Assembly (NCBI GenBank): GCA_963848965.1
Contig: CAWKFG010000004.1
Location: 544,001 to 608,000, forward strand
From: an uncultured bacterium
Lineage (GTDB): Bacteria; Babelota; Babeliae; Babelales; Babelaceae
DNA: 64,000 bases
Reading direction: 5' to 3'
Every line of letters begins with the position of its first letter. The first letter of the stretch is position 1. The notes under the pieces are model-generated. The model saw only the letters and a list, made by a program, of their open reading frames with translations. It made no database searches and was not told the DNA's origin. Made by a program: the position numbers and the translations under genes. Positions 16,925-44,908 of the stretch are shown here, piece by piece.

Positions 16925-19900
16925 TCACTTTTTCTCTTCATCCTGTTTTTTGTAACGTTCTTCAAACTCTTTTATCCTTTCTTCGAAAAGAGCTTCACCT
17001 CCACCATCAAGATTAGCTTTTTTACAACATTCTTCTAACTCTTGCATTTCTTTTCTAGCAAGACTGCCAACGTCAAGGATCTGTCGTACTTCTGCAAGTT
17101 CTTTTTTGAGCTTTGGACCTTTTCTTTGTAGTTTCTTCATATGTTGTGTAAGAATCTTTTTAACTCCTATAGCACTAACTTTACCTGCTAAATCAATTGC
17201 ATCAAAGCCATCTTGATTTTTCAATTGCACATTAGCTCCCGCTTGTAAAAGAAGCTTTACTAGTTCTTCCTGCTTTTTTGTAGATTCTACCGTTAAACTA
17301 GAGCCTAGAGTTCTATTATCACATGCAAGTATAAGTGCTGTATTACCTATTTTATTCTGTATATTAATCGATGCCCCTTTTTCAATAAGATATCGCGCTA
17401 CATCTAGGCGTTGATTCATACAAGCAAATAGTAATGCAGTACATCCTTCTTTACTAACTATATCAAGCTTTGCTCCTTTTTCTACAAGAAGCTTTACTAT
17501 ATCATACGAGCCACGCTCAGCTGCGCCCATTAATGGTGTACCTCCTGCAAAGTTCTGAACGTTTGGACAAGCTCCTTTATTCAGTAAAAGCTGTACTATG
17601 TCTAAAGAGTTTACTTCTACTGCCGCTAACAAAGGATTGCCACCAAACTTATTTGATTTTTCTATGTTTGCTCCTCTTTCAAGCAATAAGGTCACAAGCT
17701 CTTTATTTTTCTTCTCACAGGCACCAATAAGTGGGGTACCTCCTAATTTATTTTGTTGGTCTATATCAGCACCTGCATCAAGAAGTAATTGCATAAGTTT
17801 TTCATCCTGTTTTTCACAAGCTACAAGCAGCAGAGTCCCACCTTGTGTGGTAAGTCTATTAACATTGGCACCATATTCAAGAAGAAGCTTAACAGTTTCA
17901 TAGGACCCCTGTGATAGTGCAAGAATTAAGGGACTATTACCATTATTATCACATCCTTCAACATCTATATGTGGAAGAGAAAGAAGCAGTTGTACTATTT
18001 CTTCATTACCTTTTATAAGCGCTTGCATTAAGGGAGTCATACCAGCAGTATTTCTGGCATGTGGATTTGCACCTGCTTCAATAAGGCACTTTACCACTTC
18101 CGGCACACTGCTATCACACGCACAATGAAGAACGGTATTGCCATTAGGTAAAACGTACTTTGGATCTGCTCCGTGGCAAAGCAGCATTTTTACAACGTCT
18201 CTATCTTTTGTTTTTGAGATACATGCTGCACTGAGAGCAATTGCTCCGCAAGGATCGCTTTCAGTTATACAAGCACCAGCACGTAAAAGAATTTCTACAA
18301 TTTCTCGTGACCCTTGAATACATGCAGCCATAAGGGGAGTCCATCCACGTTTATTAACATGATGGATATCTATAGAGGGTACTTTTAAAAGCATTTCAAC
18401 CACTTCTTTTGATTCTGCATCGCAAGCATAAGTTAAAGGAGTTGAGCCATCTTTGTCTTGGATGTTAATTGGTAGGCCTTGTTTTAAAAGAAATTCTAAA
18501 GCTGTTACTTTGTTCCTAATAATGAAATCTTTTAACTCTTCACTAAAATCTGATATCGTGGATATATCTAAATTTCCTTTTTGTACAAGCAGCTCAGCTA
18601 TATCCCAAGCATCCACTGCAAGAACAAGAAAGAGCATTTTATAAGTGGCAGGAAGCCCATAGTCTAAACAGAGCTTTATGAGATCATAGGTAACTCCATA
18701 AGAAAAAAGAAAGTTCTCCACTTCTTTACTTTTGACAAGATAACCATACTTCGCCTTATCAAAAAGAAGTCTAAGTGCTCCTGTTTTTTTCTCTTTAATC
18801 AAGTACTCTATAATTTCTAGTTTGTGTTTATCATTGAGCAATTCAAGAAAGCTATTCCTGTTAAGTGTCTCAAATTCTTCACCAACAGATTCTTGTGAGA
18901 GCTCAGTTAATTCTGAAAATGCAGCTAATTTTCTACAAAGTATTTCCATTTCACGCGTTTCAGCCTGTTTTACGAGCTCTTTGAGCGTTTGGGGAATCCC
19001 TTTAAAGTTAATAAGATCAGAAATAGTTTTGCCTGCCTTATTTCTACACAAAACTGAAGCTCCACTTTGAACTAACATACTACTTATCTCATACCTCTTT
19101 CCTAAAACTGCATAATGAAGAGCTGTACACCCTTGATTATCTTGTGTATTAAGCTCAAGATGTGGACATTCCAAAAGCGCTTGAACTGCTTCTGTATTGC
19201 CTTGTTGTACTGCAACTATTAAAGGGGTTATCCCGCGCTCATGTACATAGTTAAGATCACTAGTTATACCTTGCCTTAATGTTTGATGATCATTAAAATA
19301 GGCTGCTATCATTGCGTGGCAATAGCCTTGTGCTTTAAGTTCCTCAGTTACCCTCTGCCTTCGTTCATGTTCTTGTGCTTGCAACGCCTCTTCTTTTCTT
19401 TTTTGCTCAAACTCTTGCAAACAGGCAACAAGAGGAGTCTGCGATTGAGCATAATATAGAGCAGTATGTCCTGCTTTAGTTTTAGCATGTATATCAGCTC
19501 CCGATGAACACAACACAGTAACCATTTTTATATTATGAGATTTTACTGCTCGCATTACTATAGTTTCTCCGTGCTCATTAGCATAGTCAAGCGCACGAGG
19601 ATAATAAGTAAGAAATGCCTCGACTATTTCTACAGAACAGGTACTTACAAGCTCTAAAAGAGCTTCTCCTGCTTGCTGTACCCCAAACTTAACTATTTCC
19701 TGAGCAAGACATAGATTAAAGAGACTAATATCACCTTCACGAGCTATATTCAAAATCATTTTATATACTAACGTAGGAAGCTGAGAAGCTATAAAACGAA
19801 CGAGTTCAATATCTTTGTTATCTAACGCTCTTTTACAACACGTAAGTATACTTTCCTCTCTTATTATCCCATGTTCAATAAGAAGTTTCATACTAGCAGT

Positions 19901-21901
19901 ATCTCTATTGTCAAAAGCTATAACAAAGGCATCACGTTGTTTATCGTCAACCGAAGATGTGGAAGCACATTGTAGTTCAATTATTTGCTGCGCTAATTCA
20001 TACTTCTTCTCTCGGATTGCATATAAAAATGGCGTACAGCCATCTCTGCTTATCTTTTTATTCTTAAAAAGAAGCAATGCTGCTTTTCTCTCTTCAGTTA
20101 AAGAACCCTTACGAATATCTGATTGCAATACCTGATATTTCTGTTGCAGAGCTTCTTTCTCCTTTTGCTCTCTTTCACGCAAAGGTGCATTAAGCCCTTC
20201 TACAACGGTTAAAAGCGTTGAAGCAATGAGCTTGCTTTTATGTTTTTGAGCATAATCACAAATGCTTATGCCATAAGGAGATAGTATACGAGGATCTGCT
20301 CCCATTTGAAGAAGTATCTCTACAAGTTCCTGATGCTCATGTTCTACTGCATACATGAGAGCAGTTACATTATACTCATTATGCTCATTGACATTAACAC
20401 CTTGAGCAAGAAGTTTTTTTACTGCGCTTACATTCTTAGTGTGTACTGCATACATAAGTTCTGTTGCTTTGTTTTCTTCAAGCCATGCACGTTTTTTTTG
20501 CATAAACTGCTCAATGCTCTGTACAATGGCTTTACCGTTATACTTTTTAGCCAGCACTAAAGCTGTTTCTCCTTTTGCGTTTACCAGACTAACATCTGCA
20601 CCATAGTCTAACAAAAGGTTTACTAAGGACAATCTATCAAGCATAACTGCATGCATTAACGCAGTATTTCCTTCGCTATCCTGTGTATCTACGTCTGTAT
20701 TATGCTCGTGCAAGAGCTCAATAATAGCTTTGCATCTGTCATTATCGTCTTTCTCTTCTTGCAATGCTTGTACTGCTAACATTAAAGCGGTTCTTTTATA
20801 CTTATCCTGTATATGCGGGTTTGCACCAGAACGGAGTAATAATTCTACATTATCAATATGTTTATAGGTAGCTGCAAGCATAAGCGGTGTATGGCCGTCA
20901 TTATTTTGCTTATTAATCGTATCTAGATCACAAAGCATTAATACACAACGGAAACTCTCTCCCTGAGCTGCATAATGGAGTGGCGTAGCGCCTTTTTTAT
21001 TACTTGTAGCACATGAAGCTTCATGCATAAGAAGTAAAGAAACGAGTTCAGTATTACCTGAAAGTGCTGCTCGCATAAGAGGAGTAACTCCCTCAGAAGT
21101 AGTTACCTCAGGATCCGCTTCAATAGAAAGCATATTCAACACCTTTTGATAATCCTGTTGCTCTACTGCTTCTATAAGCTTAGGAACTTTTATATAACTT
21201 GCCACTTGTTGTTGCTGTGAAGGCACCTTCTTAGAGACATTATATGTTTTTTGCCGCTGCACAAGCTCACGTATATCTTGTTCAATATGTGGCAACTTTT
21301 TGTTTATAAGAGGAAAGAGCGTAAGAATGTGCATGCTTTTACTAATACGAGGGCATCCCTTTATTACCATCTGTACTGGTACATCTTCATTATTACCAGA
21401 AGCAGGTATAACAGTAACGATATAGGTTTTATACATGCTACAGCTTTCACGTTTCTCTTCCTGTATATGTACCGTTCCCTCTGTCATAAGACGATGTATA
21501 TAGGCAATGACATCTTTTTTTTGCCAACCAACTGGGAAAAATGTTTTTACGTCTGCTACCCCTTGATGTATAACATAGCCTTGATGAAATTTTCCGCTAT
21601 CTTCTACGGCTACAACTTGATGTAAAGGGGTAAATGTACCAAGCGTTACTCCTTCTTTTAATAAAGACTTATGGGGCGCTGGTGCATATACATGGAAACC
21701 TGAAATCGTATGTACGTCTTTTGATACACATATTTTCTGGCATCTTACAACGTGATTAAGAACATCTTTTAACGGTAAAATGTGATGATATCCATCAAGA
21801 ACAAGCTCTACTGAGCTTTCACTTTCTATAATGGGAGTTTGTTCTTTCTCCATTGCAAAAAGAGCACTGCTCACACTTAAAAAGATAATAAATTTATACA
21901 T
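16925..21901 (-). CDS. Secreted EndoU-like nuclease / ankyrin-repeat protein, paralog 1
   Basis: Signal peptide ...LFA-MEKE; LNH(50)...SGFH(70)...K(119)TFFPVGW...ILTLFP; more than 20 ankyrin repeats. Confidence 0.85.
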   Translation of the reverse strand: MYKFIIFLSVSSALFAMEKEQTPIIESESSVELVLDGYHHILPLKDVLNHVVRCQKICVSKDVHTISGFHVYAPAPHKSLLKEGVTLGTFTPLHQVVAVEDSGKFHQGYVIHQGVADVKTFFPVGWQKKDVIAYIHRLMTEGTVHIQEEKRESCSMYKTYIVTVIPASGNNEDVPVQMVIKGCPRISKSMHILTLFPLINKKLPHIEQDIRELVQRQKTYNVSKKVPSQQQQVASYIKVPKLIEAVEQQDYQKVLNMLSIEADPEVTTSEGVTPLMRAALSGNTELVSLLLMHEASCATSNKKGATPLHYAAQGESFRCVLMLCDLDTINKQNNDGHTPLMLAATYKHIDNVELLLRSGANPHIQDKYKRTALMLAVQALQEEKDDNDRCKAIIELLHEHNTDVDTQDSEGNTALMHAVMLDRLSLVNLLLDYGADVSLVNAKGETALVLAKKYNGKAIVQSIEQFMQKKRAWLEENKATELMYAVHTKNVSAVKKLLAQGVNVNEHNEYNVTALMYAVEHEHQELVEILLQMGADPRILSPYGISICDYAQKHKSKLIASTLLTVVEGLNAPLREREQKEKEALQQKYQVLQSDIRKGSLTEERKAALLLFKNKKISRDGCTPFLYAIREKKYELAQQIIELQCASTSSVDDKQRDAFVIAFDNRDTASMKLLIEHGIIREESILTCCKRALDNKDIELVRFIASQLPTLVYKMILNIAREGDISLFNLCLAQEIVKFGVQQAGEALLELVSTCSVEIVEAFLTYYPRALDYANEHGETIVMRAVKSHNIKMVTVLCSSGADIHAKTKAGHTALYYAQSQTPLVACLQEFEQKRKEEALQAQEHERRQRVTEELKAQGYCHAMIAAYFNDHQTLRQGITSDLNYVHERGITPLIVAVQQGNTEAVQALLECPHLELNTQDNQGCTALHYAVLGKRYEISSMLVQSGASVLCRNKAGKTISDLINFKGIPQTLKELVKQAETREMEILCRKLAAFSELTELSQESVGEEFETLNRNSFLELLNDKHKLEIIEYLIKEKKTGALRLLFDKAKYGYLVKSKEVENFLFSYGVTYDLIKLCLDYGLPATYKMLFLVLAVDAWDIAELLVQKGNLDISTISDFSEELKDFIIRNKVTALEFLLKQGLPINIQDKDGSTPLTYACDAESKEVVEMLLKVPSIDIHHVNKRGWTPLMAACIQGSREIVEILLRAGACITESDPCGAIALSAACISKTKDRDVVKMLLCHGADPKYVLPNGNTVLHCACDSSVPEVVKCLIEAGANPHARNTAGMTPLMQALIKGNEEIVQLLLSLPHIDVEGCDNNGNSPLILALSQGSYETVKLLLEYGANVNRLTTQGGTLLLVACEKQDEKLMQLLLDAGADIDQQNKLGGTPLIGACEKKNKELVTLLLERGANIEKSNKFGGNPLLAAVEVNSLDIVQLLLNKGACPNVQNFAGGTPLMGAAERGSYDIVKLLVEKGAKLDIVSKEGCTALLFACMNQRLDVARYLIEKGASINIQNKIGNTALILACDNRTLGSSLTVESTKKQEELVKLLLQAGANVQLKNQDGFDAIDLAGKVSAIGVKKILTQHMKKLQRKGPKLKKELAEVRQILDVGSLARKEMQELEECCKKANLDGGGEALFEERIKEFEERYKKQDEEKK

Positions 21902-21913
21902 AGCTTATCTCAC

Positions 21914-24900
21914 TTATTTTTTCTTAGCACGTATATGTTCAAGTAAAAGAGCTTGAATTTCTTTATGTTTTAACTCAGACGCTAGAGTAAGCGCATCCTT
22001 CCTTTGGTTATTTTTTATAGAGCAATCAGCACCATGCTGCAAAAGCACCTGCACAACCTCTTTACGATTATTCATAGCCGCATGCATAAGTGCAGTATTG
22101 CCAGAAATTTCTTGTATATTTACATCTGCCTTATACTTTAACAAAGAATTGACTATTCTTAAAAATCCATGAGAAGATGCTGTAATTAAAGCAGTACAAC
22201 TTTGAACTCCCTGTATATTAACATGAGCGCCAGCTTTTAGTAAATGCTCTACTGTATCTGCACATCCACTTGCTGCAGCACACAACAGAGGGGTATTTTT
22301 ATCTATCCCTGCTTTATTAACATTTACACCATACTTAATCAGAAGCTCAACAACAGAAGCAGTATCTTTAAGAGTACATAATCTTATTAAAACAGGATTT
22401 CCCTGCTTATCAAGTGAGTTAGGTGAAACTTCTGCTTCCAATAAAAGCTTAATTATTGGGTAATTACCAAGGTGACAGGCAGCAACAAATGCCATAGCTT
22501 TATACGTGTCTTTTATTTCCTGGGATAAAAGATACCGCACAACTTCAACTTGGTCTGCCGCTACAGCCGATATAAGAGGATTAAAATTTTTATCAACAGT
22601 ATGTACATCAGCACCCTTTGCTATAAGGAATCGCGCTAACCGTTCATGCCCTTTAGTACATGCATAGGTAAGAGCACTGTAGTTGTCTTTCGTTACAGCG
22701 TTTATTAAAGCTCCACGAGCCAAAAGTAGTATCACAATATCTTCATGATTCTTATCACACGCAACTGTTAAAGGAGTTCGTCCATCTGGAAGTTTAACGT
22801 TAGCGGATGCTCCTCGATCTAAGAAATACCGCACCATATCAGGCCTATTTTCTAGCACAGGAGCAAAGAGGATATGTGAGGCCTTTTTTTCATCACAGCT
22901 ATCCATATCTAAGCCATGGCTCAATAAAAATTCTACTACTTCTTCATTACCTCTACAGCTTACATTCCAAAATATATTACGCCACATATGATCATTCTTA
23001 TCTACAGAAGGATAGTAAGAAAACAGTAAACGTGCTATTTCATTCGTTTTTCTATCAATAGCAATTCTAAAAGCATTTCCGCTCATGTTATTTTTTATAG
23101 AAACATCCGCACCTGCTTGCAAAAGAAGTTTCACAACTTCCGTATGTCCCATAAAACATGCAAGATGAAGAGCGGTATTTCCTTCATTGTTTGCACAATT
23201 AACCCGAGCACCTTTTTTAAGAAAGAACCTTACCAGTGGAACTCGTCCTGCCTGGCTTGCCACCATAAGCGGAGTACCATCATTCTTATCTGCCATATTA
23301 ACATCGGCTCCAGCATCAAGTAAAAAGGTAATAAGCTCATCCTGCTTTTCCATACAAGCAGCTAACAAAGGAGTAATGCCATCAGTCTCATCACAACAAT
23401 TGAGAGAGACACCTTTTTTTACAAGAAGTTCAATAAGCCCCTTAACGTTGTTTATATGAAGGAGTCTATGAAGTATCAAGCCAGGAAAATCATTTCTTAT
23501 GCGCCTACAGAGTTCAACCAAAACATTCGAAGCTAGCTGCCTGTTTTCAGATACAGATTCATGACAATATTCAATTAAGAACTTTATAGTATCTTCAGAA
23601 AAGTTTCTTTGTATAAGATTCAGAAGCATGCGCCATGTAACAGGAGCTCCATATCTAATAAGCAATTGAGCTTTTTCAAATGCACTTTCATCTTGCATTT
23701 CTATATTCCAGGTTTTTAGCATTGATAAATGATCTGTTTTTTTAAGAAGTATTTCAACACTATCAAGATGACCATTATTCAACAGAACCGCAATAATTGT
23801 TTCTTTAAACTTTGTTCTAAAAAAGTTAAAAGGCGTACGAGCATTAATCTCATCAAAGCGTTTTTCTTTTTCTACAGTTGAAACATCTTCTGACAAACTA
23901 TCAATAATTGCTTGAATTTCTCCTACTTCAGCTGCTAGAAGCAGTTCTTTTATATGAGTGGCTGTAGCTTTTAAACTTACTATATTCGATGCTACTTTAA
24001 ACAGCTCTTCCATCTGCACAGCAGATAGTTTTAAATTAAGCATGTCAAAAGCCGTTCTTTGGTTATTATCAACAATTAAAGCAGCTACTCCACTGCGCAC
24101 TAACTCTTCTGCAATAGTATGATGCTTATTAAGCACAGCATACATAAGAGCAGTTAAACCTTGGTTATCTTTTTGGTTTTTATTACATCCCTGTTTTTTC
24201 ACAAGCGCTCTTATTGCCTCTAGATGTCCTTTTTGAGCTGCTATCATTAAAGCCGTTGTACCATCTTTAGTAGCGCAATTAACATCACATGTTATATCAT
24301 TCTCAATAGCTTTATCATCATTATAATGAGCAGCTATCATTAAAGCTGAATATCCTTGGATTCTGAGCCCTTCAACTGTCTTTTGTATGTGTTCTCGCTC
24401 TTGTGCTTGAACAGTTGTTTTCACTTTCGCTTGCTCAATCTTTTGTAATAGCATAAAGACAGGACTTTTAGAATGTGTATAATCAAACACAGTACGCCCA
24501 CTGGTTGTTCTACTTTCTAAAGATGCACCTGCATTGTATAATCGAGTTATAACATCTTCTCTCTGAACTTTTGCAGCTATCATAAGCGCTGTTTCTCCGT
24601 ACCCATTAGCATACATCACAGTAGCAGGATAGCATGCAATAATAAGGTCAATAATAGCTGTAGTAGATCTTTGTACTGCAGCTACTAAAAGTTCACCTGC
24701 CTGCACCTCATCAAGTTGTAGACCACTATGCTCTAAAAGAAACTCAACGCATTCTTTATCTGGTTTAGAAAGAGCATTATATAACATCTTTATGAGTACA
24801 TAAGGAACAGTATGCGCAAATACCTCTAATAAAGCATTTTTTTGGGTAGTCATTGCTTTTTGAAAGCACTGTTCTATAGTACTTTCCTTTGGTATACCAT

Positions 24901-26929
24901 GGTTGAAAAGAAGCTTAATCATTATAAGATCTTCATTATCGCATGCAATAGAAAGAGCGTCTCTCTTATTATCATCCAAAGCATACGAGACAAACTGCTC
25001 TTTTATCATCTGTTCTACGAGGTTATATTTCTTCTCTCGTACCGCGTATAAAAATGGCGTACAGCCATCTTTAGATATCTTACGCTCTTGCAAAATAGAA
25101 AGCGCTTCTCTTCCTGCTTGAGTTAAACAGTCATGAGCAAGATCTGATTGCAAAGCTTTTAATTTCTCTTGTAATACTATTTTTTCTTTTTGCTCTTTCT
25201 CTTTGAAGGAAGCAGCATATTTTTCCATATGTCTTTCTACAAGAAGCTTTATCCTTTGGTCTATCTGTGTGCTTTCTTGTACATACTGATATAGCGGATA
25301 TTTATAAGGAGTTGTAAGCCGAGGATCGGCATCAGTCTCTAAAAGTTGTTGTAAAAGTTTTATGTTATTGGTTTCTACAGCAAAAAACAGTGCTGTATGA
25401 CCATAAGCCCCTTGCTCATTGCTATCTGCACCTGAGGCAAGCATCTTTTTTACCTTATTTTCATTACCAGTAAAAACAGCATACATAAGTTCCGTTGCTG
25501 CGCATTCTCGTAACCACTCATGCTTTTCTTGTATATGTTTTTCAATACAATGTGCAATAGCAGTATATGAACGCTTTTTTGCTAAACTTAAAGCAGATTC
25601 TCCCTTTTTATTTTTCATCTCTGTATCTGCATAAAATCTCAAAAGGAGTTCAACAAAAGATAAACGGTCAAGGTCCGTTGCATGCATTAAAGCCGTCATC
25701 TCGTCTGTATCATATGCATCTCTATCTGCTCCGTGCATAAGCAAGAGCTCTATAAGAGCTTTACACAACAAAAGATCTTCTTTCTTTCTATGCACTGCAG
25801 TTACTGCCATACTTAAAGGAGTTCGCTTATAGGTATCTCTGCAATTGGTATCTGCACCAAAACGTACTAAAAGCTCTGCAATATCAACAAGTTTCTGATC
25901 AATAGCAAGCATAAGTGGAGTTATACCTTCGTTATTAGGCCTATTAATAGTTTCTTTATCTAAAAGGCTTAATACACAGTGGAAATCTCCTGAGAGTACT
26001 GCATAATGCAATGGAGTATTGCCTTTATGATCTCAAGCTGTTTTAGATGCATTGTTAAGAAGCAACAGAGATACAAGTTCCCACTCTCCACTTCGTGCTG
26101 CTTTCATTAAAGGAGTTGTTCCTTCTTGAGTAGCTCCTTCAATATTAGCTCCTAATGAAATAAGATGTGTTACACGTTGAAAATCTTTTTGCTCTATAGC
26201 TGTAAATAATTTTGAAACTTTAACTCGTTTTTTCCTTTGTGCTTGCTGGCAGGGAAGCCTTTGCTCAAGCAAATATTTTTTTTGTTCTTGTATACAAGCA
26301 TGAACGCTCACTTCAAGAGAAGAAAGATTTCCTTTAATAAGAGGAAAAAGAGTAATAATGCGCATGAGTCTTTCTGCTTTTGGACATCCCTTAAGAACCA
26401 TATATAAAGGAGTATCTTCTGAGTGCGCTTGAGATGGCACTAAAGTAACTTGATATGTTTTAAAGCTGCTAGAGCTTTCTTGAGCCTCTTCTTTAATTTT
26501 TACAGTTCCTTCTGCCATAAGGCGATGTATATAGGCAATAATATCCTTTCTCTGCCATCCTACAGGAAAAAATGCCTTAGGGCATGCTACGCCAAAGTAG
26601 ACAACATATCCCTTATGAAACTTTGTTATATCTCCTAATGCTAGTACTTTATGAAGAGGACTAAACGCACTAATAGTCTCTTTACCATCACTTGTAGTCT
26701 TTATTGAAGGATATACATGAAAGCCAGAGATAGTAAGCTCTTCTCTTGATTTTGGCACTTGCTGGCAACCATAGAGGTGATTGAGGACATCTTTTAGTGG
26801 TAAAATATGATGTACTCCATCAAGAACAAGTTCTAGCGAACTTTCTGCTTCTATAATCTGCTCTTGCTCTTTTTCCATAGCCCAAAGAGTCGGCACTATG
26901 CTTAAAAAAAGCGCTAATAATATATACAT
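21914..26929 (-). pseudogene. Secreted EndoU-like nuclease / ankyrin-repeat protein, paralog 2, interrupted by one in-frame TGA
   Basis: ORFs 26033..26929 and 21914..26011 are in the same frame, reading SKTA*DHKGNTPLHYAV. Motifs LNH...SGFH...PKAFFPVGW...IITLFP. Confidence 0.85.
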
Positions 26930-26969
26930 TATGTGTCCTACAAATTTTAGGATTTATTTTTTAGAGTAA

Positions 26970-26996
26970 GGGCTGTTGCGATTTAAGCAACAGCCC
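26970..26996 (-). terminator. Hairpin between paralogs 3 and 2
   Basis: GGGCTGTTGC/GCAACAGCCC 10-bp stem with only a weak U-tract. Confidence 0.55.
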
Positions 26997-27003
26997 GCTT
27001 CCG

Positions 27004-30000
27004 TTAGTGTGGTGGTTGCTCGGCACTTGTTTGTTTTGCATATTCAAGAACGAGTTTTTTGATCTCTAATGCTCGAGCGTCCATGTCTCTTAACTGATGT
27101 TTTTTATATCTTTGAGCGTACGTCATATTTCCTGTACCTGTATTAAAAGTAAGTGCCATACCTCCATTATACTTACCAGGTCGCACGATATCAAACACAG
27201 TGCTACCCTCTTTATTTTTAAGCGAAAGATTTACTCTACGCGTAGAGAGTAATAACTGCACGATTTCCTTATGATTATTATAGCATGCGATTATTAAAGG
27301 AGTGTCCGCTTCTAAAATAACACAGACTGCCTGACTTGTAGGGTTCATAAAAATATACGCTGGCATCTGCGAAGAATATGTCTTAAGTCTTACTTGAGCA
27401 TTAACATCTGCACTTGCTTCAAGTAGAAGCTTTACAATATCTGCTCTTCCTATAGAACATGCTTTTGCTAAAGGAGTAAGGCCAGCTTCATCTAAAATAT
27501 TTGTACGTGCACCAGCTGCTAGTAAAAGCTGTACTATTTGAGCGTGGCCTCTATCACATGCACACCGTAAAGGAATCATTCCTGGACTGCCCTGAGCATT
27601 TACATCTATTCCTTTTTTAATAAGATAGTGCACTATTTCGGCTTCTCCTACTGCACATGCTAAGCAAAAGAAATTGATAACATCTTTCTTAGTTACATCT
27701 ACCTTAATAGCTTCAGAAAGTAAAAGCTCTCTAAATATTCTTCTACTTTGCAAATACTTTTCATCAAAAATATGCAGCTCAGAAATTCCTTCTTTATAAT
27801 GAGCATCTAATGAAGCACCAGCTTCAAATAAAACCTTTACTATCTCCTTATGTCCGCTTAAAGCAGCAAGCAAAAGAGCTGTATGAGCATGATCACACGT
27901 CTGATTAGGATTTGCGCCCAAATGTAGTAATAATTTTACTGCCTCTAGATTGCCTTGTTCTGCTGCAATAAGAAGAGCTGTATGACCATCAGCAATTTTA
28001 CCATCTACGGGTACACCAGCTTGTACAAGTTGATATACGATAGCAGAATGATTGTTAACAATTGCCGAATATAATGCCGTCAATCCTTTAACATCAGAAG
28101 TATTTACATGAGCGCCTGCTTTTATAAGCGCTGCTACTACATCTGCATATCCTTCTTCAGCCGCATGCATTAACGCAGTACACTTTTCCTCATCTTGAGC
28201 ATTCACATTCGCTCCACGCTTAAGAAGTAAAGAAACAATCTCAAGGTTTCCTTTATTTGCAGCATCTTGTAAAGCAGTCCATCCTTCACTATCAGCCTGA
28301 TCAATAGAGGCGCCTGCTTGCAATAAAAGTTTTCCTGCTTTTTTATTACCTACCCGGCAGGCAACACCTAGAAGATGAACACCACTATAGTTGTGATTTA
28401 CGTCTTTTATATAGCCTGTAATAAAGCGTGGTAGGACAACGCCTTCTTTGTCATGTTCACAAAGTGCTGAAAATATGCTAACACTCTCTTCATTACCACC
28501 CATTTCTACAGTACCTGTATTTAATAAAAGCTGTGCTAATGCAAGTTTACCTGCTTCTAAGGCAGACAGTACTATCTTAGCAGGAATACAAGTATAATAG
28601 TTTAGAAGAGTAATAACGATCGCAGAATCATTACATTGTACAGCATATTCTAAAGGATCAAGAAGCGCTTTTTCCTGCTTTTTTTGTGGATAAGGCATAA
28701 CATTAAGAAGCATCTTAAGCATATCTGCTCGACCTAATCCAACAACCTGATTAATAAGGTATATTTTATCATCATCATGCAACTTCCTTAAATGAAATTT
28801 AAATCTATCAAAATAAGTTGCAATTTCAGCAGGAACAGACATTTTTGCTCCTAAGCTTAGATATATAGATAACTCTTGCCGCAGTTTTCGTTTTGCAGAT
28901 TCTTTAACAAATGGAGGAACTTCTTGCATCTCAAGCAGTTGCATAATACTTTCACCAGCTTTATTTACAAAGCATACAACCGCCCCTGCAGCTATAAGAG
29001 CTTGTGCAATTTCATAGTGCTTGTATTTTACTGCATACATTAAAGCAGTATTGCTTATTACATCTGCCTGATTTACCTTGACACCTTGTTTTGCAAGAAG
29101 CATACGAACCATATCACTCGCTCCTTGACAAGCTGCAATCATAAGAGCAGTCTGCTTTGATTTGTCACATGCATTTACGTCATCATTACTACGTTGAACA
29201 GCTTCTTTTTCACCAAAATGAACAGCTATCATTAACGGAGTACACCCTTCTTCTTCGAGCTTCTTTTGTACAAGCTCTTTAGTTTGTAAGTGTTGTACTC
29301 TCAGAGCTTCTTCTTTTTTCCTTTTCTCAGGAGTTTCTAATAGATTGCATAAATGAGCATTATATTTTGCATGATCTAGAGCACTAGCACCATCTTTATC
29401 TTTCAGATGTATATTTGCACCAGCATTAGAAAGCAGTTCAACAATACTATAACGCTCTAACTTTACCGCTCTCATAAGCGGAGTTTCTCCTCTTTCATAA
29501 GCATAATCAATACCAAAAGCACAGTATTTAAGCATGATTTTAACTATACTTTCATCTAAGCTTTGAATAGCTTCAAACAGAAGTTGTCCTGCTTGCTCTG
29601 GTGTAAGTTCAATAATATGTTCTTGAAAGATAAGTTCCACTGTGCTTACTTCATGCTTTGTTATGGCTTTGCGGATAAAACTATAGACAGTGTACAGTGC
29701 TTTTTGGGCAAGAAGTCGTGCACGTGCGTACTTTTTATGTGTAAGCACAGCCGTAAAATTATGCTCTATACTAGATCCTCTCACTTTTCCGCTTGCAATA
29801 AGCAAAGATACCATTTCACTATCTTCATTATCAAGTGCAATACAAAGAGCATCTCTATTGTTACTATCTTCAGCTTGAGTAGATGCTCCTAAAGCAAGTA
29901 ATTGAGATACTGCATTATACTTGCGCTCTCGCACTGCATAGAGTAAAGGAGTACAGCCATCCTTACTCATAGCTTGATTATTAAATTGCGAAATGATCTC

Positions 30001-31794
30001 TAAAGGAACTTTGCTTACATCATTCTTCATAATATAATCATGCAAAAGAACAAACTTTCGTTGCCGCTCATTATTTTCTTTTGTCCTCTTTTCCTTAAGA
30101 AGAGCACGATACTCTTGTGCCGCTTGCTCTATTACCTCTCTTACTGAAGGAAGTATTTTTGAGTTCTGATGTACATAATGATCAATGCTCTGAGCATACT
30201 GCGTTTGAAAACAAGGATTCGCTCCTTTTTGAAGAAGTACTTGCACAAGTTCAAGATTATTATTATCTGCAGCAAAAAAGAGAGCTGTTCTTCCTACGTT
30301 ATCTTGCTCATCTATTTCATGTGATACTACAAGCTGTTTTACCTGTGCTGTATTATTGCTATACGCTGCATATAAAAATTCGCTTGCTGCATAGTCTTTC
30401 ATCCAAGTATTTTTACGCTCAATAACACGCTCTATACATTTTAAAAGAGTCTGATCTGCATTCTTTTTAGCAAGAGAAAGCGTCGATTCACCTCTGTTAT
30501 TCTTCAAAGTATAACCTGCATGAGCATTTAACAGAAGCTCGACAAGAGGTATTTTATTGTGAAATGCAGCATGAATAAGAGCACTGTCTCCTGCCTTATC
30601 TTGAGCGTCTATTTCCGCTCCATATTTTATAAGTAATTCTACTATAGCCTTATAGAACAGAGTTCCTTTAGGATCTACCTGAGTCACTGCATGCATAAGT
30701 GCAGTTCTTCCAAAAGCATCTTTTGCATTAAGTTCAACATGCCATTGAAGAAGTAAGCTTACTATATCAACATGTTTATTTATAACAGCAAGCATTAAGG
30801 GAGTTATTCCTTCATTATTCTGAGCATTTAAAGTTTCAGGACTTATAAGTCCTAAAACACAGTAAAAGTCTCCTGATTGTACTGCATAATGAAGCACTGT
30901 ATTACGTTTGTCATCACACGCTGTCTTTGAAGCACCATATTCAAGTAAAGTATTTACCAAACACCAGTCTCCAGCCTTTGCACACATCATAAGAGGAGTA
31001 ATGCCTCTTTCATTTGCTATAGTAGGATCTGCCCCTTTTTCTAGAAGCTCTATCACTTTTGATACATACCCTTCCTCTACAGCCTGTATAAGCTCTGGCT
31101 TTCTTTCTACTTTCTTTACCGTATTCAAGCCTTTTGCTTGCTGTACAGCAAATGATTCAAGGTTTGCCAAGGGATAGTCTTTGTGTTGTATTTCTGGATA
31201 TACCGTAAGTATATGCATACTCTCTTTGACACCAGGACATCCAAGCACAAAAAGTCGCAGTGGCGTTATCAATCTACTTACAGGCAAAGGAATCATCTTA
31301 ACACGATATACCTTATAGCTCTCACTTGTACGTTCCTTACGTTCTTTTACCTGCAATTCGCTTTCTTGGTGCATTCCCTTAATATAGTGAGCTATATCAT
31401 GGATGTTCCAATTACACGGAAAAAAAGTTTTTGGCGCTTTACAGACTTTTCCTCGATAGATAACATAGCCTGTATGAAATGAATAGATATCTCCTAATGC
31501 AACGATCCACAGTCCTGGCGTTAATTTGCATAACGTAGCACCGTTTCCAAGATCTATCTTTTCTGCAGTAGTACCATACCAGTGGAATCCTTTAACACAT
31601 ATCTCTTTGGTCAAAGGATCAGTGAGTATCTGATAATTGCAAATATGGGCAAGCACTTTCTGTAACGAGATAGTATACGGAACACTTTCTAACTTAAGAG
31701 TAACACTCATGCTATCTTCAGGAGCTTTTTCCATAGCACTTACAGAAGAAATGCAGAGAAAAAGACTCAAGACGAGCGTCAATAATTTCTTCAT
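27004..31794 (-). CDS. Secreted EndoU-like nuclease / ankyrin-repeat protein, paralog 3
   Basis: Signal peptide ...VSA-MEKA; LAH...KGFH...PKTFFPCNW...ILTVYP; more than 20 ankyrin repeats. Confidence 0.85.
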   Translation of the reverse strand: MKKLLTLVLSLFLCISSVSAMEKAPEDSMSVTLKLESVPYTISLQKVLAHICNYQILTDPLTKEICVKGFHWYGTTAEKIDLGNGATLCKLTPGLWIVALGDIYSFHTGYVIYRGKVCKAPKTFFPCNWNIHDIAHYIKGMHQESELQVKERKERTSESYKVYRVKMIPLPVSRLITPLRLFVLGCPGVKESMHILTVYPEIQHKDYPLANLESFAVQQAKGLNTVKKVERKPELIQAVEEGYVSKVIELLEKGADPTIANERGITPLMMCAKAGDWCLVNTLLEYGASKTACDDKRNTVLHYAVQSGDFYCVLGLISPETLNAQNNEGITPLMLAVINKHVDIVSLLLQWHVELNAKDAFGRTALMHAVTQVDPKGTLFYKAIVELLIKYGAEIDAQDKAGDSALIHAAFHNKIPLVELLLNAHAGYTLKNNRGESTLSLAKKNADQTLLKCIERVIERKNTWMKDYAASEFLYAAYSNNTAQVKQLVVSHEIDEQDNVGRTALFFAADNNNLELVQVLLQKGANPCFQTQYAQSIDHYVHQNSKILPSVREVIEQAAQEYRALLKEKRTKENNERQRKFVLLHDYIMKNDVSKVPLEIISQFNNQAMSKDGCTPLLYAVRERKYNAVSQLLALGASTQAEDSNNRDALCIALDNEDSEMVSLLIASGKVRGSSIEHNFTAVLTHKKYARARLLAQKALYTVYSFIRKAITKHEVSTVELIFQEHIIELTPEQAGQLLFEAIQSLDESIVKIMLKYCAFGIDYAYERGETPLMRAVKLERYSIVELLSNAGANIHLKDKDGASALDHAKYNAHLCNLLETPEKRKKEEALRVQHLQTKELVQKKLEEEGCTPLMIAVHFGEKEAVQRSNDDVNACDKSKQTALMIAACQGASDMVRMLLAKQGVKVNQADVISNTALMYAVKYKHYEIAQALIAAGAVVCFVNKAGESIMQLLEMQEVPPFVKESAKRKLRQELSIYLSLGAKMSVPAEIATYFDRFKFHLRKLHDDDKIYLINQVVGLGRADMLKMLLNVMPYPQKKQEKALLDPLEYAVQCNDSAIVITLLNYYTCIPAKIVLSALEAGKLALAQLLLNTGTVEMGGNEESVSIFSALCEHDKEGVVLPRFITGYIKDVNHNYSGVHLLGVACRVGNKKAGKLLLQAGASIDQADSEGWTALQDAANKGNLEIVSLLLKRGANVNAQDEEKCTALMHAAEEGYADVVAALIKAGAHVNTSDVKGLTALYSAIVNNHSAIVYQLVQAGVPVDGKIADGHTALLIAAEQGNLEAVKLLLHLGANPNQTCDHAHTALLLAALSGHKEIVKVLFEAGASLDAHYKEGISELHIFDEKYLQSRRIFRELLLSEAIKVDVTKKDVINFFCLACAVGEAEIVHYLIKKGIDVNAQGSPGMIPLRCACDRGHAQIVQLLLAAGARTNILDEAGLTPLAKACSIGRADIVKLLLEASADVNAQVRLKTYSSQMPAYIFMNPTSQAVCVILEADTPLIIACYNNHKEIVQLLLSTRRVNLSLKNKEGSTVFDIVRPGKYNGGMALTFNTGTGNMTYAQRYKKHQLRDMDARALEIKKLVLEYAKQTSAEQPPH

Positions 31795-31961: not shown

Positions 31962-32780
31962 TTATTTCTGAGGTATTACTACAGTTTCTAATTTTTTCCG
32001 CTGATCTTCTAGCCATTTATCTAATGCTTTGTTAAAGTTTGCATACTCGCTTTTTGGAAAGGCCTTTTTTAATGCATCAGCAAGACCCACTGCTGGATAA
32101 TCTGGAAAATAAGGTTTAAGTAAATTAATTATTCCCTCTACATATGCCATACTAACCGGCTTCTTGATAGTAAACTTAACAAAAAGCTCAAGAGCTGATT
32201 GTACAAAGCCAAAATCTTTTGCTACAGTATACCCTCTTGCTGGTCCTCCTAGTAAATAAGCTTCAAGATATTGAGGTATCCCTCCAAGAGCAATTTCTTC
32301 ATCCGGAGTTAATCCTTTTTGACCAGCGCCTTCTTCTACCCATTTAGTAAACATTTTTGTAAAGTAGGGATATTGTTTAAATTTTTCTGCCATCTCAGTA
32401 GTTATATAGGTACGTTCAAGACTTGGATACACTTCTTTAAACGCACTTACTATTGCATCAAACACAGAAGGCGTTGCAAGTGCCTCTTGAGCAATAATAG
32501 GTTCTAAAAGATTAAGAAGAGCATCTAACTCAATGAGCACACTTTTAGTTCGCATCTCTCTAGGAGCCAATCCTTTTTCATACTGCTGAAGGATATCCGA
32601 TAAATGGAATCTGATTGTTTCTGCTCTAAGTTCTAGAGGTAATCTTAAAAGAAAAGAAGGATCAAGCTCTTTAGGCTTTATAATACCAAGCTTTTCAAGA
32701 CCCTTTTTAACTTTCCTCATACCAAAGAGTGAAAAGGGAGCGCTCCCTATAAAAATGAAGAGTAAAATTCTTTTATTCAT
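31962..32780 (-). CDS. Secreted helical protein with an F-box-like N-terminal motif
   Basis: Signal peptide ...LFG-MRK; motif LLRLPLELRAETI. Confidence 0.65.
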   Translation of the reverse strand: MNKRILLFIFIGSAPFSLFGMRKVKKGLEKLGIIKPKELDPSFLLRLPLELRAETIRFHLSDILQQYEKGLAPREMRTKSVLIELDALLNLLEPIIAQEALATPSVFDAIVSAFKEVYPSLERTYITTEMAEKFKQYPYFTKMFTKWVEEGAGQKGLTPDEEIALGGIPQYLEAYLLGGPARGYTVAKDFGFVQSALELFVKFTIKKPVSMAYVEGIINLLKPYFPDYPAVGLADALKKAFPKSEYANFNKALDKWLEDQRKKLETVVIPQK

Positions 32781-43717: not shown

Positions 43718-44908
43718 GTGACCATGAAAGCACAATTAAGCACCCTCGGATTCATAGTCTGTAGTGCACTAGCTTTTATACAAGCAATGGAGAGCATGCC
43801 TCGTATAAACCCATGTTATCCAGCAAATGAGTATAGATATACTATTAGCATTGCCGGTATTTCTTGCAAAGATTTCAAGGATAAGGTACGAGGCTGTGTC
43901 TTAGGGGCAGCTTTAGGTGATATGCTGGGAGCGCCAACAGAATTTATCTCTTCACGTGAAGCTATTAATAAAGTATATCCACCCTCTGGCATTACAGGTA
44001 TTGAGAGCTTTAAGGAAAAAGACTTTACAAAGGATGCTTCTGGCAAAAAAGTAGCTCCCTATACTGACGATACTGCCATGAGTATTCTTGTTTTAGAAAC
44101 TATTACATGTTTTAGCAGATCGCAGTTTAACCCTCCATCACAATGGAACATAAATGATGCTATGCATGATCTTGCATTGAGCTTTGTAAAAGATATGAAT
44201 AACCCTGCCGGTTGGGCACAACAAAGGCGAGCTCCTGGGCTTACCTGTTTACGTAATGTACAAGAGCTTGCCACACGGTTTGAAGCAATGGCCAGGAAGC
44301 ACAATAAAGATCCTCGTTTTTGGGCAGTTGGCAAACCAACAGAAGGTGGTTGCGGATCTGTTATGCGAGCACATCCCTTTGGCCTTATTTTTGCAGGAAA
44401 TATAGAAAAAGCAATAGAATGGGCAGTAGAACACTCCAAAATTACTCATGGAGCTCCTATGGCTTTAGCCGCCTGTGCCGCAATGGCATGCGGTGTCGCT
44501 CATGCTCTAAGAAACGAAAAGCCAGAAGCAGTTGCTCAAAGAATGTATGAAGTTGCAAAAAAATATGATAGTTATACAGCACAGCTTATAGAACGAGCAA
44601 TAGAATATGCCTATGATGCTCGCAAGCCAAGTGATGAAGTATTTAAAGAGTTTCAAGGATGGGCAGCTCATGAAGCTATTGCAGCTGCTACTTATGCATT
44701 TTTAAAGCATCCAGATGATCTGAAAAAAGCTATTCTCTTAGGAGTTAATACCCCTGGTGATAGCGATAGTATTGCTTCAATGGCAGGAGCTCTTGTAGGC
44801 GCTCGCATTGGCGCACAACAGATACCACAGGAATGGCTTGAAGTACTTGAAGGGAGTCAAAGACTTATACAGCTTGCTGATAATGTTGCAAATTTATATA
44901 AGAAATAG
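43718..44908 (+). CDS. Secreted ADP-ribosylglycohydrolase (ARH/DraG family)
   Basis: Motifs GAALGDMLGAPTEF, YTDDT, GCGSVMR and GDSDSIASMAG; signal peptide ...IQA-MES. Confidence 0.9.
   Translation: MTMKAQLSTLGFIVCSALAFIQAMESMPRINPCYPANEYRYTISIAGISCKDFKDKVRGCVLGAALGDMLGAPTEFISSREAINKVYPPSGITGIESFKEKDFTKDASGKKVAPYTDDTAMSILVLETITCFSRSQFNPPSQWNINDAMHDLALSFVKDMNNPAGWAQQRRAPGLTCLRNVQELATRFEAMARKHNKDPRFWAVGKPTEGGCGSVMRAHPFGLIFAGNIEKAIEWAVEHSKITHGAPMALAACAAMACGVAHALRNEKPEAVAQRMYEVAKKYDSYTAQLIERAIEYAYDARKPSDEVFKEFQGWAAHEAIAAATYAFLKHPDDLKKAILLGVNTPGDSDSIASMAGALVGARIGAQQIPQEWLEVLEGSQRLIQLADNVANLYKK

Follow-up and report, generated by a model that had tools for sequence, protein, structure and literature searches.

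Background

What might a bacterium gain from a tandem array of three giant genes, each of which joins an export signal to a compact head and a long train of ankyrin repeats? The array in question lies at positions 16925 to 31794 of a stretch of 64,000 nucleotides (hereinafter the window) from an uncultured bacterium of the order Babeliales, phylum Dependentiae (GenBank assembly GCA_963848965.1, contig CAWKFG010000004.1, positions 544,001 to 608,000). A previous interpretation, drawn solely from the letters of the window (hereinafter the sequence-only reading), had identified the heads as bacterial EndoU ribonucleases (RNases) and had conjectured that the proteins are host-directed effectors. 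Our analysis bears out the first of these claims and finds the second plausible. The catalytic domain itself is already familiar; what is new is the combination of a Sec signal, an N-terminal EndoU domain, a giant repeat tail, tandem arrays and the absence of an immunity gene.

The Dependentiae parasitize protists, occur widely and have hardly been cultured, and roughly one tenth of their genes encode ankyrin proteins. Passages of the published account of Chromulinavorax describe members of the phylum as inhabitants of protists, most of whose ankyrin proteins carry signal peptides, the proportion in Chromulinavorax itself being 78% (PMC6561590).

Results and discussion

Organization of the array

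The three genes are numbered here by window coordinate; as all of them lie on the minus strand, the order of transcription is 3, 2, 1:

16925..21901, minus strand: copy 1 (P0002), 1658 aa, with a signal-like N-terminus, EndoU head and ankyrin array; transcribed last
21914..26929, minus strand: copy 2, a single frame of 1672 codons broken by one stop
27004..31794, minus strand: copy 3 (P0001), 1596 aa, with a signal-like N-terminus, EndoU head and ankyrin array; transcribed first

The list of open reading frames (ORFs) and their translations yield 1658, 1672 and 1596 codons and intergenic gaps of exactly 12 and 74 nt, in agreement with the layout of three co-oriented paralogs of ~1600-1670 codons that had been described beforehand. 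The copies are collinear end to end and 33-40% identical, with copies 2 and 1 sharing 39.8% identity over 1564 aligned positions, and on the evidence of their sequences they are old duplicates. Conservation is greatest in the head: copies 1 and 2 agree at 58.9% in the first 200 alignment columns, as against 22-48% in later windows of 200 columns. Promoter-like sites are no commoner than in shuffled sequences (53 versus 54.4) and no convincing minus-strand terminator was found between the copies; in view of this null scan we make no claim that the array is an operon.

Behind the signal of each copy lies a non-ankyrin head of ~180-190 aa, a little longer than the ~170 aa originally estimated, and the ankyrins follow it. 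The number of repeats depends on the detector: stretches matching Pfam PF00023 number 21 in copy 1, 1+15 in copy 2 and 16 in copy 3, whereas a repeat hidden Markov model (HMM) that we built from these proteins themselves recovers 25, 24 and 22 repeats, respectively, at E<=0.1. The figure of more than 20 repeats in each copy thus holds with the home-built model, and PF00023 gives fewer for copies 2 and 3. The array of copy 3 may serve as an example:

27238..31092, minus strand: ankyrin array of copy 3, residues 235-1519, with 22 repeats and non-matching stretches of 70-203 aa between blocks

Sequence evidence for an EndoU-like head

The segments that concern us most, with their putative active-site residues, are as follows:

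21272..21841, minus strand: EndoU-like head of copy 1, residues 21-210 (H50, H70, H106, K119, T194, F196)
26300..26866, minus strand: EndoU-like head of copy 2, residues 22-210 (H51, H71, H105, K118, T193, F195)
31150..31722, minus strand: EndoU-like head of copy 3, residues 25-215 (H50, H71, H107, K122, T197, Y199), the sequence modelled below

All of the motifs to which the sequence-only reading had drawn attention, namely L-x-H, G-F-H, K-x-F-F-P-x-x-W and I-(I/L)-T-x-(F/Y)-P, occur in the three copies and are invariant in the seven paralogs of this genome. The residues it had named, H50, H70 and K119, are correct to the position in copy 1 and correspond to H51/H71/K118 in copy 2 and H50/H71/K122 in copy 3. 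Its description of the layout, motifs and residues was accordingly sound, though it overlooked an in-frame TGA in copy 2, to which we return below.

The Pfam model of the bacterial EndoU domain (PF14436, EndoU_bacteria) has a gathering cut-off of 25.3 bits. Copy 1 matches it below threshold over profile positions 18-128 of 129 (E 0.018, 15.8 bits), copy 3 likewise in a collinear, sub-threshold manner (E 0.1, 13.4 bits), and copy 2 gives no PF14436 row at E<=10. Six of the seven genomic paralogs show such sub-threshold matches, with scores of 13.1-23.6 bits. Evidence also comes from relatives. Thirty of the 60 family representatives identified below were scanned with Pfam (every short one, the long ones in which no ankyrin motif was evident, and a few more); PF14436 was listed at E<=0.1 in 18 of them, and three passed the cut-off (P0043, 29.8 bits; P0020, 27.9 bits; P0033, 27.8 bits). 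Furthermore, in one other Dependentiae genome (G029) four giant copies of the same N-terminal type pass PF14436 at 30.7-39.2 bits, and these very genes match a profile of the seven heads of the present genome (A1) at E 1e-33 to 1e-37. The Pfam check proposed for the head therefore succeeds in some of its relatives and fails for the window copies themselves.

A profile-profile comparison connects the two groups directly. When a 26-sequence alignment of the family (A2) was compared by hhalign with one (A3) of 26 Dependentiae EndoU domains of the canonical C-terminal type, the two were matched over 130 columns with a probability of 98.6% and E 1.3e-15. In this pairing the L-x-H, G-F-H, K-x-FFP-x-x-W and T-x-Y-P motifs of the family fall on H-I-F, G-F-H-H, K-x-T-FFP-x-x-W and T-A-Y-P of the canonical domains, so that the motif pattern is, at the level of sequence profiles, shared far beyond chance. 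Other searches gave no match: neither a single head nor the seven-sequence profile retrieved an EndoU chain from the PDB sequences, nor did the genome's own canonical EndoU domain, and a single head searched against a collection of genome contigs found no relative. The family is further distinguished by an inserted β-hairpin bearing a third conserved histidine, which is kept in 58 of the 60 representatives.

Taken together with the structural ranking below, these observations make it almost certain that the head is a homolog of EndoU, and the claim that it belongs with the bacterial EndoU RNases stands on the Pfam passes in relatives, the hhalign match and the EndoU nucleases at the top of the structural comparison. 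Since relatives pass PF14436 and the window heads do not, the latter are best described, as far as their sequences go, as a divergent sister family, outside the boundary of the present Pfam model and inside the EndoU-like group of the BECR fold.

Structural model and active site

An AlphaFold2 model of the copy 3 head, obtained with the A2 alignment, is confident (predicted local distance difference test score 92.4, predicted template modelling score 0.88). In one-by-one alignments with 48,161 representative solved chains, the first rank was taken by the Middle East respiratory syndrome (MERS) Nsp15 (Z 6.1, 116 aligned residues), followed at rank 2 by the antibacterial EndoU toxin CdiA-CT STECO31 (5hkq_A; Z 5.6, 121 of 143 aligned) and at rank 5 by a calcium-activated EndoU (9ftw; Z 4.9, 129 aligned). 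Equine arteritis virus (EAV) nsp11 stood at rank 17 and XendoU at rank 36, with other RNases of the BECR fold, such as RelE and CdiA-CT Kp342, in between. When the top 1000 Foldseek hits were given a second look, the top three were all EndoU nucleases (Z 6.2, 5.8, 5.2). We let such structural Z-scores count only jointly with the sequence evidence. As modelled, the head has the duplicated α/β architecture of the BECR fold, with Z-scores of only 4.9-6.2 and a Foldseek search that falls short of significance. The structural check that had been proposed, AlphaFold followed by Foldseek, hence had a divided outcome: the model is confident and EndoU comes out best in the 48,161-chain comparison, but Foldseek itself is not significant.

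The relationship to the nidoviral Nsp15/NendoU and the eukaryotic XendoU/EndoU enzymes should be read with care. Structurally they match best (Z 6.1-6.2, 113-116 aligned) and have the catalytic residues in common with the window family, but only 8-13% of the sequence is identical, the viral enzymes assemble into hexamers as subunits of the replicase, and no kinship beyond the superfamily is implied.

Reference residues for the EndoU-like group were taken from PMC9086364 and a 2026 preprint on the BECR fold. According to the portions of the former that deal with the active site, the STECO31 EndoU uses H187, H204, K261, T262 and H321 (PMC9086364); the window family has the same order of residues at comparable spacing. 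The two histidines, the lysine and the Ser/Thr of the last strand that mark the EndoU-like group are thus all found in its sequences. Among the 60 representatives the first histidine is kept in 57, the second in 59, the lysine in 58, the Thr/Ser in 56 and the Tyr/Phe/His in 58, and the exceptions are mostly fragments. To judge from these residues the head looks catalytically intact, and it is probably active.

The interrupted copy

One reason to doubt that the genes are functional is the stop codon in copy 2:

26033..26035, minus strand: in-frame TGA (copy 2, codon 299) within the initial ankyrin repeats, aligned to Cys in copy 3 and to Ser in copy 1
26033-26929 and 21914-26011, minus strand: the pieces of copy 2 split by the TGA, of 298 aa and 1365 aa (the latter from TTG)

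We considered whether TGA might be a sense codon here and rejected this, as it terminates 125 of the 694 ORFs of at least 300 aa in the genome, copy 1 among them. Because TGA is a normal stop, copy 2 as assembled consists of a 298-aa piece that spans the signal, the head and a single repeat, with the other 1365 aa in a second piece. A lone stop in 1672 codons of an old duplicate suggests that the gene became a pseudogene only very recently, that the stop varies between strains or that the assembly is in error. The search for public sequencing runs listed no RNA run; the only run found, of soil DNA, contained 6% of the sampled words. Its contigs, three in number and short (151-329 nt), are identical to the window and do not span the TGA.

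It might be argued more generally that the head is a dead domain, surviving as an RNA- or ligand-binding module, or that the genes are decaying relics. The strong divergence from PF14436 and the stop codon are what one would cite for this, but the His, His, Lys and Thr/Ser are retained in 56-59 of the 60 representatives, two of the three copies and six of the seven genomic paralogs are intact over 1,225-1,658 codons, and the broken copy has acquired a single stop in 1,672 codons despite being only 33-40% identical to its neighbours. We consider either possibility very improbable.

A small family of the Babeliales

Searched against 1.84 billion representative proteins, the A1 profile retrieved only 60 matches at E<=1e-3. 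In all 60 the match to the head begins at or before residue 66, and 37 of them are at least 1000 aa long. The present genome (1.73 Mb in 5 contigs) contains seven paralogs of 1225-1658 aa, with the head N-terminal in every frame. Of 261 Dependentiae genomes searched with A1, 20 have a match at E<=1e-3; strong matches (E<=1e-12) in giant frames are confined to six, namely the present genome (G000), G018, G029, G032, G093 and G242, which belong to three taxonomic families of one order, and the weak matches in the other 14 are mostly canonical PF14436 domains. The survey of related genomes that had been recommended therefore located the architecture, in a family that is small and restricted to the order Babeliales. 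Its members occur in tandem elsewhere too, with arrays of 12 copies in G029, six in G242 and four in G018. Source names on family proteins (four of ten looked up) were 'ankyrin repeat protein' (two), 'uncharacterized protein' and 'hypothetical protein'.

In a quick, unrooted maximum-likelihood tree, a single branch with an SH-aLRT support of 99 divides 26 heads of the family from 26 canonical domains, which fits a single origin of the family.

The tails of the family vary. Most are ankyrin arrays, some give matches to TPR, Sel1 or WD40 repeats, and about 12 members consist of the head only (131-275 aa). Many members, head-only forms included, display a conserved short helix after the head with a Leu-x-x-Leu-Ala-x-Gln-Gln-like sequence (A2 columns ~285-300, residues ~207-220 of copy 3), which might serve as a linker or mark a processing site.

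Canonical EndoU_bacteria domains above the Pfam cut-off are far commoner, being present in 79 of the 261 genomes. As a separate observation, several partial canonical domains often follow one another within 1-2 kb across the phylum, some with stop codons (for instance G096:C7:145024-146750 and G206:C12:82907-85471); these runs have the look of polymorphic-toxin loci accompanied by orphan toxin cassettes, here in bacteria that live obligately inside cells.

Domain order, immunity genes and the antibacterial alternative

The bacterial EndoU toxins, typified by the CdiA-CT of E. coli STEC_O31 (PF14436; PDB 5HKQ), have a homologous catalytic domain with the same order of His, His, Lys and Thr-x-Tyr strand. 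They differ from the window family in several respects: their domain is a C-terminal tip, whereas that of the family is N-terminal behind a Sec signal; the family has the extra β-hairpin with the third histidine and, in the window, scores below the Pfam cut-off; ankyrin arrays replace delivery repeats; and no immunity gene accompanies it. Measured against the definition of polymorphic toxin systems (Zhang et al. 2012), the window proteins have no toxin domain at the extreme C-terminus, the head starting at residue ~21-25, and no immunity gene downstream.

The last point can be made quantitatively, for the gaps around and within the array measure only 12, 74, 88 and 167 nt. It is followed downstream by PgeF and then SecA, and upstream lie an orphan and FtsZ:

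31962-32780, minus strand: orphan of 272 aa between ftsZ and the EndoU array, with a signal-like N-terminus and no Pfam or NCBIfam match

Beside the window genes there is neither an immunity-like candidate nor space for one, in line with the lack of an immunity gene that the sequence-only reading had noted. In the arrays of G029, G242 and G018 the spacing is about the length of the genes, which leaves no room for additional genes there either. The same genome provides an instructive contrast in a canonical EndoU toxin of 1504 aa (C5:20870-25384), whose EndoU domain occupies residues 1369-1488 at the Pfam cut-off. Downstream of it (locus L038, G000:C5:19572-25384) are a 131-aa ORF, a 143-aa ORF resembling SpoU methylases and another ORF of 131 aa; the pair of 131 aa are paralogs with 42% identity, no Pfam match and no other homolog in the genome, and appear immunity-like.

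These facts bear on the possibility that the array encodes classical antibacterial toxins, aimed at competitors such as co-infecting symbionts, with immunity located elsewhere or unnecessary. EndoU_bacteria is, in the sections of Zhang et al. 2012 devoted to it, mainly a domain of polymorphic toxins (PMC3482391), and both its frequency in the phylum and the canonical copy in this genome lend the idea some appeal. The N-terminal position of the domain is nevertheless the reverse of what such toxins display, Pfam finds no RHS, filamentous-haemagglutinin, type V or type VI secretion parts in the proteins, and models of VirB4 (type IV secretion) and TssC (type VI secretion) have no match in the genome, which is 88.7% complete. 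Moreover, no immunity-like gene is near, and the immunity-like ORFs of the canonical toxin have no second copy. An antibacterial role is, in our judgement, improbable.

A parallel comes from bacteria living inside eukaryotes. Zhang et al. 2012, in their treatment of Wolbachia and Amoebophilus, describe proteins combining Tox-REase-8 with ankyrin arrays, without immunity genes, and read them as host-directed (PMC3482391). The window proteins resemble these in uniting a nuclease toxin with ankyrins, in lacking an immunity gene and in a presumed intracellular life, the lifestyle being deduced from the Dependentiae lineage and the relevant passages of PMC6561590. They differ in that Tox-REase-8 is a DNase of the restriction-endonuclease fold from another phylum, and the window has an EndoU RNase at the extreme N-terminus, in tandem arrays. 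On that published description, the concept of an immunity-free toxin-ankyrin effector directed at a host has a precedent. The same source reports a Mimivirus Ntox19 protein in which ankyrin repeats are likewise attached to an RNase of the BECR fold, again in a parasite that lives within cells, those of amoebae (PMC3482391); as described there it is set apart by belonging to another BECR family and by being viral, cytoplasmic and not exported through Sec.

Export and the nutritional alternative

All three N-termini, read by eye, are signal-peptide-like: a brief n-region leads into 10-14 hydrophobic residues that form the core, and the small residue at -1 precedes a Met. The Sec signal ascribed to each paralog is upheld to that extent. 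In copy 3 this methionine is immediate:

31735..31794, minus strand: signal-peptide-like segment of copy 3, residues 1-20, with Met directly at the predicted +1

As a possible route across the outer membrane, the genome encodes three secretins and two ATPases of the type II secretion kind.

The EndoU family shares a junction of a small residue, Met and Glu or Gln, and a similar pattern recurs genome-wide. In a crude screen a hydrophobic N-terminus was found in 563 of the 1241 ORFs of at least 150 aa; 214 of the 563 have Met followed by a polar residue within ~12 residues after the hydrophobic core, as opposed to 38 of 563 at a control position. Examples in the window are 31735-31794 and 32718-32780. 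Either a signal-peptidase site peculiar to the lineage, with Met at +1, or a second start codon might account for the junction.

The placement of the nuclease directly behind an export signal is also compatible with a nutritional role, in which the protein would stay in the periplasm, at the surface or in vesicles and turn host RNA into importable nucleotides, with the ankyrin tail as a tether or scaffold. EndoU enzymes, as it happens, are endonucleases that leave oligonucleotides and not mononucleotides, which sits poorly with such a function. So does the retention, in 37 of the 60 representatives, of a fast-diverging ankyrin array of 1,400 aa, hard to square with bulk digestion. Speaking for it, a periplasmic RNase requires no immunity gene, and the Dependentiae lack complete metabolic pathways and are predicted, in the parts of PMC6561590 concerned with metabolism, to secrete scavenging nucleases. 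We regard the nutritional explanation as rather unlikely.

The ankyrin tails and the gating alternative

The sequence-only reading had likened the proteins to RNase L, in which an ankyrin domain and an RNase are also combined in one polypeptide. This is an analogy only: the KEN nuclease of RNase L is unrelated to EndoU, the order of domains is reversed and a pseudokinase is present, and no copy in the window has a Pfam match to a pseudokinase or KEN domain at E<=1. One could still imagine, by this analogy, that the array folds onto the head and silences it until a host ligand or partner binds, as a gate or a form of immunity in cis. RNase L is indeed regulated by its own ankyrin domain, and certain toxins are reported to have ankyrin-repeat immunity proteins (Imm-ank, in the corresponding passage of PMC3482391). 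Yet, besides the missing kinase-like and KEN domains and the unrelated, C-terminal nuclease of RNase L, the family includes members with TPR, Sel1 or WD40 tails or with the head only, and the existence of members without ankyrins argues against an obligatory lock of ankyrins on the head. Gating in the manner of RNase L thus found no support, and we give it little credence. Host RNA shut-off, nucleotide harvesting and action against co-infecting viruses, which the sequence-only reading had offered as roles, likewise stay conjectural.

A proposed host-directed RNase effector

Having weighed these alternatives, we incline modestly towards the view that the window proteins are RNase effectors exported through Sec and a secretin and directed at the host; export from the bacterium and action on host RNA are, in themselves, plausible. 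The proposed course of events is the following. 1) The head would be an active endoribonuclease, probably metal-independent, leaving 2',3'-cyclic phosphate ends. 2) Being N-terminal, the EndoU head would emerge first across the inner membrane and would be unfolded while in the RNA-containing cytoplasm; a head that passes first through Sec and does not fold in the cytoplasm would render an immunity protein unnecessary. 3) The outer membrane might be crossed by the secretin/type II-like apparatus of the genome, or else by vesicles or lysis. 4) The target would be host RNA, and the fast-diverging ankyrin or other repeat tail would select a host protein or compartment. The context that speaks for a host target includes the intracellular lifestyle of the Dependentiae, the signal peptides on most of their ankyrin proteins, the like interpretation of the nuclease-ankyrin proteins of Wolbachia and Amoebophilus by Zhang et al. 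2012, and the eukaryote-type RING finger on a neighbouring giant ankyrin protein, described below.

Several observations weigh against a host-directed EndoU effector and should be stated together. No head in the window attains Pfam's own cut-off for PF14436. Foldseek returned nothing from the PDB at E<=1e-3, XendoU appearing at rank 5 with E 0.048 and a template modelling score of 0.25, and Z-scores of about 6 are middling by the scale of the tool that gives them and can arise without kinship. The tree compares groups drawn up with the very profiles that retrieved them, a circumstance that helps to set them apart. One copy in three is interrupted. Finally, the N-terminal signal could be an uncleaved anchor that holds the protein in the periplasm.

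More tentatively, and as a possibility that we would place below an even chance, the Babeliales might have converted an antibacterial EndoU cassette into an N-terminal, Sec-led class of effectors against eukaryotes, with interchangeable tails (ankyrin, TPR, Sel1, WD40) and tandem amplification, each copy being sent to a different host RNA-protein complex. If this were true, it would amount to targeted cleavage of host tRNA, rRNA or mRNA in the course of the takeover of a protist cell. Relocation directly behind an export signal would be a simple route from an interbacterial toxin domain to a host effector without an immunity gene, and tails that did steer the nuclease towards particular host complexes would make the arrays a natural library of targeted RNases. 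Independently of this proposal, an RNase head with a classical His-His-Lys site offers a concrete, testable activity for some of the ankyrin proteins of Dependentiae.

The sequence-only reading had professed to know of no description of this architecture, and none was found in the full-text literature on EndoU with ankyrins, symbionts, Dependentiae and secreted effectors (supplements not covered). The sections of the Chromulinavorax paper that touch on endoU mention it only as a cytoplasmic endonuclease (PMC6561590), and the terms ankyrin, Dependentiae, Babeliales and signal peptide are all absent from the 2026 BECR preprint (supplement not covered). Automatic domain databases, on the other hand, probably already display EndoU-plus-Ank for some relatives, given that some of them pass the Pfam cut-off.

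Other features of the window and genome

Three further loci deserve mention, two of them in the window and one elsewhere in the genome:

37219-41445, minus strand: ankyrin protein of 1408 aa with a RING finger of the eukaryote type (zf-RING_2, residues 1138-1180, E 7.9e-14, 52.1 bits)
43718-44908, plus strand: ORF of 396 aa with weak matches to ADP-ribosylarginine hydrolase/DraG (E ~1e-20), far under the equivalog cut-offs
G000:C4:678341-698945 (L154, L155): second tandem array, of four giant ORFs of 1521-1773 aa

The first of these, a few kb from the EndoU array, is likely to be an effector acting on the ubiquitin system of the host. In the second tandem array Pfam detects ankyrins only, with no recognizable head.

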